This document shows positions 13,929 to 35,209 of a stretch of DNA of 64,000 nucleotides, piece by piece (position 1 is the stretch's first letter; each line of letters starts with the position of its first letter). Where the stretch lies: the NCBI RefSeq assembly GCF_055900595.2, contig NZ_CM148325.1, one strand, 5' to 3'. A model generated the notes under the pieces. It was not told the DNA's origin, made no database searches, and worked only from the letters and a program-made list of their open reading frames with translations. The translations under genes were made by a program, and so were the position numbers.

Positions 13929-14717
13929 ATGCAAACGATTATCCGTGTCGAGAAGCTCGCCAAAACCTTCAATCAGCATCAGGCGCTGCATGCGGTTGAT
14001 CTGAACATTCATCACGGTGAAATGGTGGCTCTGCTTGGGCCGTCCGGTTCCGGCAAATCCACCCTTTTACGTCATTTAAGCGGTTTGATTACCGGCGATA
14101 AATCTGCCGGTAGCCATATCGAGCTGCTGGGCCGCACAGTCCAGCGCGAAGGCCGCCTGGCCCGCGATATCCGCAAAAGCCGCGCCAACACCGGCTACAT
14201 CTTCCAACAATTCAACCTGGTGAATCGCCTGAGCGTACTGGAGAACGTGCTGATTGGCGCGCTCGGCAGCACGCCATTCTGGCGCACCTGTTTTAGCTAC
14301 TTCACCCGCGAGCAGAAACAGCGCGCGTTACAGGCGCTGACCCGCGTTGGCATGGTGCACTTTGCCCATCAGCGCGTTTCCACCCTCTCCGGCGGACAGC
14401 AGCAGCGTGTGGCGATTGCCCGTGCGCTGATGCAGCAGGCGAAGGTGATTCTGGCCGATGAACCGATCGCCTCGCTGGACCCGGAATCGGCCCGCATCGT
14501 GATGGATACCCTGCGCGACATCAACCAGAACGACGGCATCACCGTGGTGGTGACGCTGCATCAGGTGGATTACGCCCTGCGCTACTGCGAACGCATCGTC
14601 GCCCTGCGCCAGGGGCACGTCTTCTACGACGGCAGCAGCCAACAGTTTGATAACGAACGTTTTGACCATCTCTACCGCAGCATTAACCGCGTCGAAGAGA
14701 ACGCGAAAGCTGCCTGA
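13929..14717 (+). CDS. phnC: Phosphonate ABC transporter ATP-binding protein
   Basis: 262 aa; Walker [15 protein letters not shown] signature LSGGQQQRV, Walker B ILADEP. Confidence 0.9.
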
Positions 14718-29350: not shown

Positions 29351-31401
29351 TGAGCGCGCTCAACTCCCTGCCATTACCGGTGGTCAGGCTGCTGGCGTTC
29401 TTTCATGAAGAGTTAAGCGAGCGGCGACCAGGTCGCGTGCCGCAGACTATGCAACTCTGGGTAGGCTGCTTGCTGGTGATTCTGATCTCGATGACTTTTG
29501 AGATCCCTTTTGTGGCGTTATCACTGGCAGTGCTGTTTTACGGTATTCAGTCGAACGCGTTTTACACCAAATTTGTCGCGATCTTGTTTGTGGTCGCCAC
29601 GATGCTGGAAATCGCCAGCCTGTTTTTGATCTACAAATGGTCATATGGCGAACCGTTGATCCGATTGATCATTGCCGGACCGATCCTGATGGGCTGTATG
29701 TTTTTGATGCGCACCCATCGGTTGGGGCTGGTCTTTTTCGCCGTCGCCATTGTCGCTATTTACGGGCAAACCTTCCCCGCCATGCTCGACTATCCGGAAG
29801 TGGTCGTGCGCTTAACCCTGTGGTGTATTGTTGTCGGCCTCTACCCGACGTTATTGATGACGTTAATCGGCGTGCTGTGGTTTCCCAGCCGCGCTATCAC
29901 GCAGATGCATCAGGTGCTTAATGATCGGCTTGATGATGCCATTAGCCACCTGACGGACAGCCTCGCACCGCTACCCGAAACGCGGATTGAAAGAGAGGCG
30001 CTGGCGCTGCAAAAACTCAATGTCTTTTGCCTCGCGGACGATGCCAACTGGCGAACTCAGAGCGCATGGTGGCAAAGCTGCGTGGCAACGGTAACCTACA
30101 TTTACTCGACGCTGAATCGCTACGATCCCACCTCTTTTGCTGATTCTCAGGCAATTATTGAATTTCGGCAAAAATTAGCCTCAGAAATCAACAAACTGCA
30201 GCATGCCATTGCCGAAGGTCAGTGCTGGCAAAGCGACTGGCGGATCACTGAAAGTGAAGCGATGGCGGCACGGGAATGTAACCTGGAGAATATCTGCCAG
30301 ACATTGTTGCAACTGGGTCAGATGGACCCGAATACGCCGCCAACGCCCGCCGCCAAACCGCCATCAATGGTCGCCGATGCTTTTACCAATCCAGACTATA
30401 TGCGCTACGCGGTAAAAACGCTGCTCGCCTGTTTGATCTGTTACACCTTCTACAGCGGCGTGGACTGGGAAGGCATTCACACCTGTATGCTGACCTGCGT
30501 GATCGTCGCTAACCCCAATGTCGGTTCGTCGTACCAGAAGATGGTGTTGCGTTTTGGCGGGGCTTTTTGCGGCGCAATTCTGGCGCTGTTATTCACGCTA
30601 CTGGTCATGCCCTGGCTGGACAATATTGTCGAATTGCTGTTTGTGCTGGCACCGATTTTCCTGTTGGGCGCATGGATTGCCACCAGCTCTGAACGCTCTT
30701 CTTATATCGGCACACAGATGGTGGTCACCTTCGCGCTCGCCACGCTCGAAAACGTTTTTGGCCCGGTGTACGACCTGGTGGAAATTCGCGATCGCGCCCT
30801 GGGTATCATCATTGGTACCGTGGTGTCCGCGGTGATTTACACCTTTGTCTGGCCTGAAAGTGAAGCGCGCACACTGCCGCAAAAACTGGCTGGCGCGCTG
30901 GGTATGTTGAGTAAAGTAATGCGGATCCCACGCCAGCAGGAAGTCACGGCTCTGCGCACTTATCTGCAAATTCGCATAGGTCTGCATGCGGCGTTTAATG
31001 CCTGTGAAGAGATGTGCCAACGCGTGGCGCTGGAACGTCAACTGGATAGCGAAGAACGCGCGTTACTGATTGAACGTTCGCAAACGGTTATTCGTCAGGG
31101 CCGCGATATTCTTCACGCCTGGGATGCAACCTGGAACTCGGCGCAGGCGCTGGATAACGCACTACAGCCGGACAGAGCAGGCCTGTTTGCCGACGCACTG
31201 GAGAAATACGCCGCCGGCCTGGCAAGCGCATTCAGTCGTTCTCCTCAAATAACGCTTGAAGAAACACCCGCCTCGCAGGCCATTCTGCCGACCTTATTAA
31301 AACAGGAGCAACACGTCTGCCAGCTTTTCGCCCGCTTGCCAGACTGGACAGCCCCGGCATTAACGCCCGCCACGGAACAGGCACAAGGAGCCACGCAATG
31401 A
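29350..31401 (+). CDS. mdtO: Efflux pump inner-membrane component (FUSC/aromatic acid exporter family)
   Basis: 683 aa multi-TM protein; start overlaps the mdtN stop. Confidence 0.85.
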   Translation: MSALNSLPLPVVRLLAFFHEELSERRPGRVPQTMQLWVGCLLVILISMTFEIPFVALSLAVLFYGIQSNAFYTKFVAILFVVATMLEIASLFLIYKWSYGEPLIRLIIAGPILMGCMFLMRTHRLGLVFFAVAIVAIYGQTFPAMLDYPEVVVRLTLWCIVVGLYPTLLMTLIGVLWFPSRAITQMHQVLNDRLDDAISHLTDSLAPLPETRIEREALALQKLNVFCLADDANWRTQSAWWQSCVATVTYIYSTLNRYDPTSFADSQAIIEFRQKLASEINKLQHAIAEGQCWQSDWRITESEAMAARECNLENICQTLLQLGQMDPNTPPTPAAKPPSMVADAFTNPDYMRYAVKTLLACLICYTFYSGVDWEGIHTCMLTCVIVANPNVGSSYQKMVLRFGGAFCGAILALLFTLLVMPWLDNIVELLFVLAPIFLLGAWIATSSERSSYIGTQMVVTFALATLENVFGPVYDLVEIRDRALGIIIGTVVSAVIYTFVWPESEARTLPQKLAGALGMLSKVMRIPRQQEVTALRTYLQIRIGLHAAFNACEEMCQRVALERQLDSEERALLIERSQTVIRQGRDILHAWDATWNSAQALDNALQPDRAGLFADALEKYAAGLASAFSRSPQITLEETPASQAILPTLLKQEQHVCQLFARLPDWTAPALTPATEQAQGATQ

Positions 31402-32864
31402 TCAATCGTCAACTTTCACGCCTGCTGTTGTGCAGCATTCTCGGCAGCACGACGCTGATTTCCGGCTGTGCCCTGGTACGTAAGGATTCTGCGCCTCATC
31501 AACAGCTCAAACCGGAACAAATCAAACTGGCCGATGATATTCATCTTGCCAGCTCCGGTTGGCCGCAGGCGCAGTGGTGGAAACAACTCAATGACCCGCA
31601 GTTGGATGCTTTGATCCAACGGACGCTAAGTGGTTCACACACCCTCGCCGAAGCGAAACTGCGGGAAGAAAAAGCGCAGTCGCAGGCCGATTTGTTAGAT
31701 GCCGGTTCACAATTACAGGTCGCAGCGTTAGGGATGCTCAACCGCCAACGTGTCTCGGCGAACGGCTTTTTAAGCCCTTATGCTATGGATGCGCCAGCAC
31801 TGGGTATGGACGGGCCGTACTATACGGAAGCCACAGTCGGTTTGTTTGCCGGACTGGATCTTGATTTGTGGGGTGTGCATCGCTCAGCGGTTGCCGCCGC
31901 CATTGGCGCGCATAATGCAGCGCTGGCAGAAACCGCAGCAGTAGAGCTATCGCTGACCACGGGCGTAGCGCAGCTTTATTACAGTATGCAGGCCAGCTAT
32001 CAGATGCTCGATCTGTTAGAACAAACTCGCGATGTGATTGATTACGCGGTGAAAGCGCACCAGAGCAAAGTGGCGCACGGCCTGGAAGCGCAAGTGCCTT
32101 TCCACGGCGCGCGGGCGCAGATTCTGGCGGTCGATAAACAAATTGCTGCCGTTAAAGGGCAAATCACCGAAACGCGAGAATCTCTGCGTGCATTGATTGG
32201 CGCAGGAGCCAGCGATATGCCGGAGATCAAACCGGTGGCATTACCGCAAGTCCAGACCGGTATTCCGGCGACACTCTCTTATGAGTTGCTCGCCAGACGC
32301 CCGGATCTGCAAGCCATGCGCTGGTATGTTCAGGCGTCATTAGATCAGGTGGATTCCGCGCGGGCGCTGTTCTATCCGAGCTTTGATATCAAAGCGTTTT
32401 TCGGCCTGGATTCTATCCACCTGGATACCTTATTCAAAAAAACCAGTCGCCAGTTCAACTTCATTCCTGGTCTGAAATTGCCGCTGTTTGACGGTGGACG
32501 GTTGAATGCCAATCTCGAAGGCACGCGCGCCGCCAGCAACATGATGATTGAACGTTACAACCAGTCAGTGCTGAATGCGGTGCGCGACGTTGCCGTCAAC
32601 GGCACGCGTCTGCAAACGCTCAACGACGAGCGAGAGATGCAGGCTGAACGCGTGGAAGCAACGCGCTTCACCCAGCGCGCTGCCGAGGCCGCCTATCAAC
32701 GCGGCTTAACCAGCCGCTTACAGGCCACCGAAGCCCGGTTGCCTGTGCTTGCCGAGGAGATGTCATTACTGATGCTGGACAGCCGCCGGGTGATCCAAAG
32801 CATTCAGTTGATGAAATCGCTGGGTGGCGGGTATCAGGCGGCTCCCGTCTTCGAGAAAAAATAA
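31398..32864 (+). CDS. mdtP: Efflux pump outer membrane factor (OMF lipoprotein)
   Basis: 488 aa; lipobox LISGCALV; 4-nt overlap with mdtO. Confidence 0.85.
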   Translation: MINRQLSRLLLCSILGSTTLISGCALVRKDSAPHQQLKPEQIKLADDIHLASSGWPQAQWWKQLNDPQLDALIQRTLSGSHTLAEAKLREEKAQSQADLLDAGSQLQVAALGMLNRQRVSANGFLSPYAMDAPALGMDGPYYTEATVGLFAGLDLDLWGVHRSAVAAAIGAHNAALAETAAVELSLTTGVAQLYYSMQASYQMLDLLEQTRDVIDYAVKAHQSKVAHGLEAQVPFHGARAQILAVDKQIAAVKGQITETRESLRALIGAGASDMPEIKPVALPQVQTGIPATLSYELLARRPDLQAMRWYVQASLDQVDSARALFYPSFDIKAFFGLDSIHLDTLFKKTSRQFNFIPGLKLPLFDGGRLNANLEGTRAASNMMIERYNQSVLNAVRDVAVNGTRLQTLNDEREMQAERVEATRFTQRAAEAAYQRGLTSRLQATEARLPVLAEEMSLLMLDSRRVIQSIQLMKSLGGGYQAAPVFEKK

Positions 32865-32993
32865 AATGTCAGCCGCGTGATGGCTGTCACGCGGTATTTC
32901 GTTTCGTCACGTCAAAACTGACGACAGCCTGTTTTTCGTCAGAGTTTTGAACAAATAGTGCCCGTAATATCAGGGAATGACCCCAAATAAAAT

Positions 32994-33010
32994 GTGGCAT
33001 AAAAGATGCA
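32994..33010 (+). promoter_or_regulatory. Sigma-54 (-24/-12) promoter of fdhF
   Basis: tggcataaaagatgca fits the TGGCAC-N5-TTGCA spacing (GG and GC 10 bp apart), ~55 bp upstream of the fdhF ATG. Confidence 0.5.
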
Positions 33011-33061
33011 TACTGTAGTCGAGAGCGCGTATGCGTGATTTGATTAACTGGAGCGAGACCG

Positions 33062-35209
33062 ATGAAAAAAGTCGTCACGGTTTGCCCCTATTGCGCATCA
33101 GGTTGCAAAATCAACCTGGTCGTCGATAACGGCAAAATCGTCCGGGCGGAGGCAGCGCAGGGGAAAACCAACCAGGGTACCCTGTGTCTGAAGGGTTATT
33201 ATGGCTGGGACTTCATTAACGATACCCAGATCCTGACCCCGCGCCTGAAAACCCCCATGATTCGTCGCCAGCGTGGCGGCAAACTCGAACCTGTTTCCTG
33301 GGATGAGGCACTGAATTACGTTGCCGAGCGCCTGAGCGCCATCAAAGAGAAGTACGGTCCGGATGCCATCCAGACGACCGGCTCCTCGCGTGGTACGGGT
33401 AACGAAACCAACTATGTAATGCAAAAATTTGCGCGCGCCGTTATTGGTACCAATAACGTTGACTGCTGCGCTCGTGTCTGACACGGCCCATCGGTTGCAG
33501 GTCTGCACCAATCGGTCGGTAATGGCGCAATGAGCAATGCTATTAACGAAATTGATAATACCGATTTAGTGTTCGTTTTCGGGTACAACCCGGCGGATTC
33601 CCACCCTATCGTGGCGAATCACGTAATTAACGCTAAACGTAACGGGGCGAAAATTATCGTCTGCGATCCGCGCAAAATTGAAACTGCGCGCATTGCTGAC
33701 ATGCACATTGCACTGAAAAACGGCTCGAATATCGCGCTGTTGAATGCGATGGGCCATGTCATTATTGAAGAAAATCTGTACGACAAAGCGTTCGTCGCTT
33801 CCCGTACAGAAGGCTTTGAAGAGTATCGTAAAATCGTTGAAGGCTACACGCCGGAGTCGGTTGAAGATATCACCGGCGTCAGCGCCAGTGAGATTCGTCA
33901 GGCGGCTCGGATGTATGCCCAGGCGAAAAGCGCCGCCATCCTGTGGGGCATGGGTGTAACCCAGTTCTACCAGGGCGTGGAAACCGTGCGTTCTCTGACC
34001 AGCCTCGCGATGCTGACTGGTAACCTCGGTAAGCCGCATGCGGGTGTAAACCCGGTTCGTGGGCAAAACAACGTGCAGGGTGCCTGCGATATGGGCGCGC
34101 TGCCAGATACTTACCCTGGCTACCAGTACGTGAAAGATCCGGCTAACCGCGAGAAATTCGCCAAAGCCTGGGGTGTAGAGAGTTTGCCAGCACATACCGG
34201 TTATCGCATCAGCGAGCTGCCGCATCGCGCAGCGCATGGTGAAGTGCGTGCCGCGTACATTATGGGCGAAGATCCGCTACAAACTGACGCGGAGCTGTCG
34301 GCAGTACGTAAAGCCTTTGAAGATCTGGAACTGGTCATCGTTCAGGACATCTTTATGACCAAAACCGCGTCGGCGGCGGATGTCATTTTACCGTCAACGT
34401 CGTGGGGCGAGCATGAAGGCGTGTTTACTGCGGCTGACCGTGGCTTCCAGCGTTTCTTCAAGGCGGTTGAACCGAAGTGGGATCTGAAAACGGACTGGCA
34501 GATTATCAGTGAAATCGCCACCCGTATGGGTTATCCGATGCACTACAACAACACCCAGGAGATCTGGGACGAGTTGCGTCACCTGTGCCCGGATTTCTAC
34601 GGTGCGACTTACGAGAAAATGGGCGAACTGGGCTTCATTCAGTGGCCTTGCCGCGATACTTCAGATGCCGATCAGGGGACTTCTTATTTGTTTAAAGAGA
34701 AGTTTGATACCCCGAACGGTCTGGCGCAGTTCTTCACCTGCGACTGGGTAGCGCCAATCGACAAACTCACCGACGAGTATCCGATGGTACTGTCAACGGT
34801 GCGTGAAGTCGGTCACTACTCTTGCCGTTCGATGACCGGTAACTGTGCGGCACTGGCGGCGCTGGCTGATGAACCTGGCTACGCACAAATCAATACCGAA
34901 GACGCCAAACGTCTGGGTATTGAAGATGAGGCATTGGTTTGGGTGCACTCGCGTAAAGGCAAAATTATCACCCGTGCGCAGGTCAGCGATCGTCCGAACA
35001 AAGGGGCGATTTACATGACCTACCAGTGGTGGATTGGTGCCTGTAACGAGCTGGTTACCGAAAACTTAAGCCCGATTACGAAAACGCCGGAATACAAATA
35101 CTGCGCCGTGCGCGTCGAGCCGATCGCCGATCAGCGCGCCGCCGAGCAGTACGTGATTGACGAGTACAACAAGTTGAAAACTCGCCTGCGCGAAGCGGCA
35201 TTGGCGTAA
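33062..35209 (+). CDS. fdhF: Formate dehydrogenase H (selenocysteine-containing; UGA at 33479-33481 decoded as Sec)
   Basis: Two same-frame ORFs (33062-33481 and 33530-35209) separated only by a TGA; joined product 715 aa; N-terminal Cys cluster CPYCASGC; SECIS hairpin immediately 3' of the UGA. Confidence 0.9.
33482..33525 (+). other. SECIS element (SelB-binding mRNA hairpin) directing Sec insertion at the fdhF UGA
   Basis: cacggcccatcggttgcaggtctgcaccaatcggtcggtaatggc immediately follows the in-frame TGA and matches the fdhF SECIS as I recall it. Confidence 0.7.

Follow-up and report, generated by a model that had tools for sequence, protein, structure and literature searches.

A sigma-54 promoter and a putative FhlA enhancer in the mdtP-fdhF intergenic region of Escherichia coli

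The question raised by this locus is whether the gap between mdtP and fdhF holds the complete regulatory region of fdhF, comprising a sigma-54 promoter and an FhlA enhancer. In the window, by which we mean the whole 64,000-nucleotide stretch of DNA that was analysed, the list of open reading frames and the letters themselves place the TAA stop codon of mdtP at 32862–32864 and the ATG of fdhF at 33062. The interval 32865–33061 is thus exactly the 197-bp gap between the two genes, which are co-directional. The upstream gene, mdtP (31398–32864, plus strand), was identified from the list of open reading frames and from the RefSeq annotation of identical or near-identical regions. The downstream gene, fdhF (33062–35209, plus strand, 715 codons), is also annotated in RefSeq and appears as two abutting open reading frames split by a single in-frame TGA (33479–33481). 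This codon is covered by a match to the Rfam family RF01988 (SECIS_2; 33474–33528; 87.1 bits for a gathering score of 70), indicating that fdhF is a selenoprotein gene.

A 601-bp query spanning the gap matched 5,419 of the 5,426 complete E. coli genomes, and the RefSeq labels beneath were mdtP and fdhF. Identity of this stretch was 100% with E. coli Z0117EC0005 and about 98% with most other E. coli. The gene order, mdtO-mdtP-fdhF-yjcO, was the same in K-12 MG1655. Over 236 aligned bases (32840–33075), identity with K-12 was 98% and all motifs were identical; none of the three intergenic differences (32872, 32953, and 32987) was located in the promoter or the repeats. The region is the long-studied E. 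coli fdhF control region, that is the K-12 fdhF promoter and upstream activating sequence (UAS) itself and not a relative. In comparison to the FhlA- and sigma-54-controlled fdhF promoter and UAS of the K-12 formate regulon, the locus, the neighbouring genes, and the sigma-54 motif are the same, with no functional difference. The gene names and the assignment of the gap as the fdhF control region, both proposed in an initial annotation of the window, are upheld by the RefSeq labels, the SECIS_2 match, and the identity with K-12. The locus was already described and contains no categorically new feature; the definition of the enhancer core, its spacing, and the bases shared by terminator and enhancer are refinements. 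The classical reading, in which the whole interval is the complete fdhF regulatory region under the control of FhlA and sigma-54, is very probably correct.

An Rfam scan of positions 32300–33800 at a permissive E-value returned the fdhF SECIS alone and no match in the intergenic region, so that neither the leader nor the hairpin described below is supported as a known cis-regulatory RNA. An open reading frame on the minus strand (32887–33078, 63 aa, GTG start) was taken as mechanical because the enhancer and the promoter fall inside it; the intergenic sequence outside the motif blocks diverges between genera.

The promoter was scored with a position weight matrix (PWM) made from 186 sigma-54 promoters (Table 2 of PMC7658346). 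The sequence TGGCATAAAAGATGCA at 32995–33010 (plus strand), of the form TGGCAT-N5-ATGCA, obtained a score of 13.55 and ranked third among the approximately 128,000 positions of the window. Its GG (32996–32997) and GC (33007–33008) dinucleotides are 10 bp apart, in a TGGCAC-N5-TTGCW-like arrangement. The pattern TGGCAYN6TGCW had a single match in the 64 kb (1.07 expected), which was located upstream of fdhF; the element begins 67 nt 5' of the ATG and is on the same strand as the gene. No sigma-70-like promoter was detected between 32600 and 33300.

For sigma-54 occupancy, and for dependence on FhlA and formate, we relied on the literature. The K-12 fdhF promoter corresponds to the sigma-54 ChIP-seq peak OS41 (motif GTGGCATAAAAGATGCA, fold-above-threshold score of 41) and is marked as experimentally confirmed in EcoCyc (PMC4591121). 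The RpoN holoenzyme selects the mdtP-fdhF spacer of K-12 in genomic SELEX (gSELEX; PMC8743547), and in Salmonella, the corresponding element, TGGCATAAAACATGCA, was occupied in ChIP-chip experiments and associated with a 29-fold sigma-54-dependent expression by microarray (PMC3844500). The element at 32995–33010 is the published fdhF sigma-54 promoter. The -24/-12 element that the initial annotation had quoted as tggcataaaagatgca occupies these very positions and was confirmed by the rank of the PWM score, the uniqueness of the pattern, and the match to OS41.

Conservation of the promoter was assessed in 120 fdhF loci from reference genomes, which were fetched by means of a degenerate pattern covering the CPYCASGCKINLVV motif of the N-terminus. 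Approximately 100 of the 120 enterobacterial loci contained TGGCAY-N6-TGCA 53 to 142 nt 5' of the ATG, with a PWM score of at least 10. The letters TGGCA...TGCAT were invariant in an alignment of 25 genera, and the sigma-54 element was kept 5' of fdhF whatever the neighbouring upstream gene. According to a published rule, the start site is located 19 bp from the motif centre, and the start in K-12 is predicted 41 bp from fdhF (PMC4591121). Application of this rule to the window predicts a start near 33021 and a 41-nt 5' leader (33021–33061, plus strand), which contains a Shine-Dalgarno sequence, GGAG, at 33050–33053.

A perfect 6-bp inverted repeat, GCATAC...GTATGC (33007–33012 and 33029–33034), connects the -12 element with the early part of the leader. 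It is part of a 13-nt pair displaying 77% complementarity, and the leader diverges between genera. Two PWM matches in the window scored above the fdhF promoter, TGGCGCGGCTTTTGCG (14172–14187, minus strand, score of 15.4) and TGGCAGACGTGTTGCT (31307–31322, minus strand, score of 15.1), the latter being antisense within mdtO. These matches may be intragenic sigma-54 sites, as in Bonocora et al., or may have occurred by chance.

The repeat-rich string gtcacgcggtatttcgtttcgtcacgtcaaaactgacgac extends from 32886 to 32925, that is from 70 to 109 bp 5' of TGGCA. This range corrects the distance of about 80 to 110 bp given by the initial annotation; all the strings that it quoted were present in the letters at the positions that it gave. 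A repeat finder detected three direct copies of TTTCGT (at 32897, 32902, and 32934), two copies of TTTCGTCA (32902 and 32934), and two copies of GTCACG (32886 and 32906). TCGTCA and TGACGA were found as inverted copies at 32904/32919 and 32919/32936. The program also reported GTATTTCGT, GTTTTTCGT, and a wider dyad, TCAAAACT/AGTTTTGA. The half-sites that had been described as tcgtcac/gtgacga hold as the 6-mers TCGTCA/TGACGA, but not as 7-mers, because CTGACGA is the sequence of the inverted copy. The palindromic pattern CGWCA-N4-TGWCG had a single match in the 64 kb (32910–32923; 0.24 expected), 80 bp from the promoter pattern. The 6-mers TCGWCA/TGWCGA occurred 81 times in the 64 kb, and the fdhF cluster was the only place where at least three copies were present within 40 bp.

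Three elements can be delineated in this cluster. The distal element, GTCAC (32886–32890, plus strand), lies inside the 3' arm of a hairpin and was retained on the basis of the conserved position of a GTCAY motif. The UAS core (32904–32924) consists of TCGTCA followed by the palindrome CGTCAAAACTGACG (32910–32923) and an A; it was delineated from the uniqueness of the palindrome, a PWM, and conservation. The proximal half-site, TTTCGTCAG (32934–32942, plus strand), contains TCGTCA at 32936–32941 and was identified from the repeats and from conservation; together with AGTTTTGA (32943–32950), it reproduces the core imperfectly in inverted orientation. With respect to the predicted start at 33021, the centre of the palindrome (32916.5) is located at approximately -104.5, and the repeat cluster (32886–32942) extends from -135 to -79.

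The fdhF gene has been listed as FhlA- and formate-dependent, with a consensus enhancer, CATTTCGTACGAAATG, quoted from Leonhartsberger et al., 2000 (PMC4987338). The half-site of this consensus, CATTTCGT, was matched at 7 of 8 positions at 32895 and 32900 and at 6 of 8 positions at 32932. The window contained 47 such 7/8 matches, two of which were 5 bp apart at the fdhF cluster. The half-site alone was informative since the full 16-mer reached at best 9 of 16 positions in the fdhF control region. A 14-mer PWM for FhlA (TGWC-RAWRAT-GWCA; PMC7658346) identified the palindrome as the best intergenic match, with a score of 8.4 bits and rank 90 in the window. Use of this matrix as a stand-alone detector was abandoned: its information content is low and its top matches in the window were scattered in coding sequence. 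Individual half-sites were assigned by conservation and not by a strong matrix match. Since the consensus half-site carries TTTCGT, which overlaps TCGWCA, the sequence TTTCGWCA is a fair joint description of the sites.

Binding of FhlA 5' of fdhF and hyc has been reported (PMC11291172). Likewise, fdhF was listed as FhlA-dependent in a Salmonella survey (PMC3844500), and the activity of the Proteus fdhF promoter was lower in fhlA and rpoN mutants (PMC7658346). Comparison of these data with the letters supports the identification of the repeat cluster as the sequence regarded in published work as the FhlA enhancer. The matches to the published half-site, at best at 7 of 8 positions, the phylogenetic footprint at fixed spacing described below, and the FhlA-dependence reported for fdhF are all in favour of the FhlA enhancer that had been considered plausible from the repeats. 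The primary footprinting and deletion analyses of the fdhF UAS are reportedly those of Birkmann and Bock in 1989, Schlensog in 1994, and Leonhartsberger in 2000. In the published picture, purified FhlA reportedly footprints 32886–32942, and deletion of fhlA reportedly abolishes fdhF expression in a hyfR+ background.

Conservation, fixed spacing, and recurrence of the palindrome at FhlA-regulon promoters were computed here, as were the presence and local uniqueness of the elements. Upstream regions of the fetched fdhF loci were anchored on the -24 element, and 25 genera were aligned. The sequence TCG(A/T)CACGTCA-N4-TGACGA (32904–32924 in the window) was near-invariant in the 25 genera, and CTG-N4-TCGTCAG, which ends at 32942, was also invariant or nearly so; the flanks diverge freely. 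Among 105 distinct fdhF upstream regions, which are not phylogenetically independent, 98 had kept the core. In 94 of these 98 loci, the 6-mer located directly 5' of the palindrome was TCGACA or TCGTCA. A further TCGWCA was present exactly at +26 from the start of the palindrome in 83 loci, and GTCAY was found 21 to 25 bp 5' of that start in 78 loci, whether or not a hairpin was present. The seven remaining, more distant loci (Hafnia, Edwardsiella, and Enterobacillus) contained instead TCGACA-N4-TGTCGA palindromes farther upstream. The first copy of TTTCGT (32897) was confined to Escherichia in the 25-genus alignment. On the basis of the aligned sequences, the conserved core is TCGWCA followed by CGTCA-N4-TGACG(A) and a second TCGWCA, without this first copy. 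Thus, the TTTCGT-rich motifs pointed out by the initial annotation are present and match the FhlA half-site, but one of them falls outside the conserved core.

The distance between the centre of the palindrome and the GG of the -24 element was 80 to 83 bp in 90 of the 98 loci. In the remaining 8 loci (Pluralibacter, Franconibacter, and some Enterobacteriaceae), this distance was 71 to 72 bp, shorter by approximately one turn of the helix, a difference compatible with a face-of-helix constraint.

A GC-rich hairpin (32872–32895, plus strand) starts 8 nt past the TAA of mdtP and was detected by a terminator-like scan, as an inverted repeat, and by folding. It comprises 10 pairs, 6 of which are GC, and a 4-nt loop, GGCT; its core consists of perfect 8-bp arms (32873–32880 and 32887–32894). 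The predicted folding energy is -18.8 kcal/mol (z = -3.26), and none of 200 shuffled sequences was equally stable. The hairpin is followed by a T-rich tail, ATTTCGTTTCGT (32896–32907, plus strand), which holds two tandem copies of TTTCGT (32897–32902 and 32902–32907) with 7/8 matches to CATTTCGT. The tail contains at least five T in eight bases, as specified in the scan, in runs that are only three bases long and interrupted by CG. Since AUUUCGUUUCGU, the tail of the hairpin, is a U-tract with interruptions, the efficiency of termination is uncertain. The gene located upstream of fdhF was mdtP in 16 of the 120 loci (Escherichia, Kluyvera, Pseudocitrobacter, Superficieibacter, and Salmonella arizonae/diarizonae), and the stem GCCGCGTGA...TCACGCGGC was present in those of them that were examined. 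An alifold analysis of 11 of these sequences, a small sample, indicated that 8 pairs were kept, with double changes at 3 of the 8; compensatory changes from G:C to A:U were found in Kluyvera cryocrescens and Salmonella arizonae. As judged from these structural features, the hairpin is most simply regarded as the intrinsic terminator of mdtP (mdtNOP). A terminator-like match on the minus strand (32886–32870) was set aside as there is no converging gene.

The overlap between the repeats and the mdtP hairpin that the initial annotation had described was found as such: the hairpin sequence gccgcgtgatggctgtcacgcgg (32872–32894) shares 9 nt with gtcacgcggtatttcgtttcgtcacgtcaaaactgacgac. The shared bases include the GTCAC carried by the 3' arm in loci with mdtP upstream. 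GTCAC is assigned to the enhancer because genera devoid of the hairpin have kept it at an identical offset.

These observations can be combined into a model, in which the geometry of looping, the function of each half-site, and the activity of the terminator are inferred. The sigma-54 RNA polymerase would wait as a closed complex on TGGCAT-N5-ATGCA (32995–33010). Transcription would remain blocked until FhlA, a formate-sensing AAA+ activator bound approximately 70 to 135 bp upstream, touches the polymerase by DNA looping, and ATP hydrolysis by FhlA would then drive formation of the open complex. The predicted FhlA sites are TTTCGWCA-type half-sites, namely GTCAC at 32886, TCGTCA and CGTCAAAACTGACG at 32904–32924, and TCGTCAG at 32936–32942. 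Transcription would begin near 33021 and generate the 41-nt leader. The hairpin at 32872–32895 most likely ends the mdtNOP transcripts, and would for this reason insulate the enhancer and the promoter; its 3' arm would double as the distal GTCAC element.

Three other explanations have to be weighed against this model, all of which conflict with the comparative data and with the cited publications. The repeats could be mere by-products of the mdtP terminator, consisting of its arms and T-rich tail, with no enhancer role. In favour of this view, there is a genuine hairpin that extends into the 5' part of the repeat cluster, its T-rich tail is made of two tandem TTTCGT copies, and the first of these is restricted to Escherichia. 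However, dozens of genera that have neither mdtP nor the hairpin (mdtP is the upstream gene in just 16 of the 120 loci) keep the core, the TCGWCA at +26, and GTCAY at an unchanging distance from the promoter, and the same type of palindrome recurs at hydN and hyfA. This explanation is very improbable. It is only slightly less improbable that the main protein bound to the cluster is a regulator other than FhlA, which could be HyfR, a paralogue of FhlA, or NarL, ModE, or IHF acting on the spacer. A palindrome of the same type, CGACACGGGTGTCG, is present upstream of hyfA, HyfR is FhlA-like and belongs to the same family (PMC8743547), repression of fdhF by NarL and secondary activation of the regulon by ModE have been described (PMC2636881), and the spacer contains conserved blocks at 32961–32993. 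Against this possibility, FhlA is the named activator of fdhF and binds upstream of it (PMC11291172, PMC3844500, PMC4987338), the motifs match the FhlA consensus half-site, fdhF does not appear in a listing of IHF targets (PMC2636881), and inspection by eye of the spacer revealed no good match to WATCAANNNNTTR.

The last explanation, according to which the -24/-12 match is a silent sigma-54 site and fdhF transcripts come from a different promoter or from mdtNOP read-through, is the least probable. It draws on the fact that many E. coli sigma-54 sites are non-productive or intragenic (PMC4591121) and that the two matches of the window that score above the fdhF promoter are intragenic. Read-through and initiation elsewhere are both difficult to reconcile with the strong hairpin present between mdtP and fdhF and with the negative result of the search for sigma-70-like promoters between 32600 and 33300. 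In addition, the promoter is the one confirmed in EcoCyc (PMC4591121), fdhF is RpoN-dependent in Salmonella (PMC3844500) and Proteus (PMC7658346), and the element is conserved whatever the upstream gene.

The fdhF enhancer resembles those of hyc-hyp, hydN, and hyfA, which are also located 5' of sigma-54 promoters and contain TCGWCA-type half-sites. In K-12, the palindrome CGWCA-N4-TGWCG is present upstream of hydN (CGTCACTAGTGTCG) and hyfA, and the hyc-hyp region is densely filled with copies of TCGWCA. In K-12 coordinates, the distance from the palindrome to GG is approximately 70 bp for hydN, 80 bp for fdhF, and approximately 104 bp for hyfA. The hyc-hyp enhancer differs from that of fdhF by the presence of direct repeats (CGACATCATCGACA) and by serving two divergent promoters; in a published table of IHF targets, hyc, hyp, and fhlA appear, whereas fdhF does not (PMC2636881). 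A similar organization is found in the NtrC-glnAp2 system, in which the activator sites are located approximately 100 bp 5' of a -24/-12 promoter. Activation of sigma-54 promoters by bacterial enhancer-binding proteins (bEBPs) in general involves looping and ATP hydrolysis (PMC4987338, PMC4591121). In contrast to the NtrC system, the activator of fdhF is FhlA, which has a formate-sensing N-terminal domain of the GAF type (PMC11291172), and the DNA motif is different.

The control region of fdhF is a textbook case of enhancer-dependent sigma-54 transcription. Its product is the selenoprotein formate dehydrogenase H of formate hydrogenlyase, which is relevant to fermentative hydrogen production and acid tolerance. 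Confirmation of this region brings no new biology, and shows that a sigma-54 promoter and its enhancer are recognisable from raw sequence. The by-product of the analysis is a comparative description of the enhancer as TCGWCA and CGTCA-N4-TGACG followed by TCGWCA at +26.

The spacer between the enhancer and the promoter (32961–32993) contains two blocks, CCGTAATATCAGGG (32961–32974) and CCCCAAATAAAATG (32980–32993), that are moderately conserved in the 25-genus alignment. Conservation in about 20 genera was observed for CCGTAATATCAGGG and for (A)CCCACAATAAAA, the latter being directly 5' of TGGCA. A similar A-rich block, AACA(A/G)TAAATTAAAA, adjoins TGGCA in K-12 hyc and hydN. Effects of oxygen and nitrate have historically been ascribed to the fdhF spacer, which was inspected by eye for the consensus sequences of IHF (WATCAANNNNTTR), ModE, and the NarL heptamer. 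Only likenesses with two mismatches or limited to a half-site were found, so that no claim is made for binding of these proteins to the spacer.

In Escherichia, Kluyvera, Pseudocitrobacter, and Salmonella, GTCAC is part of the 3' arm of the terminator, so that the same bases would serve both termination and binding of the activator. It is conceivable, and in our estimate rather unlikely, that this double use enables read-through or extrusion of the hairpin to modulate the occupancy of the enhancer by FhlA and that CCGTAATATCAGGG and (A)CCCACAATAAAA bind a further factor or bend the DNA. If so, a spacer factor or a bend could mediate the effects of oxygen and nitrate. We know of no assignment, in the accessible literature, of a double role to GTCAC or of a role to the spacer blocks.

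Two minor observations were made among the fetched loci. Some genomes of Enterobacter, Leclercia, and Silvania contained a second, paralogous fdhF-like gene (5 loci), whose products start with MEKIMTV, MKNVITV, or MQNVITV. Upstream of these genes, there was no good sigma-54 promoter (PWM scores of 0.2 to 10.6) and no FhlA core, and they are presumably regulated differently for this reason. Finally, two metagenome-assembled genomes (MAGs) from a single study, assigned to Alistipes senegalensis and Oxalobacter formigenes, contained an fdhF-like gene on contigs of 48,217 and 48,236 bp. The two genes shared their N-terminus, MEKVITVCPYCASGCKINLV, as well as the best 16-mer found upstream, and the contigs look like that of one organism binned twice, or mis-binned.
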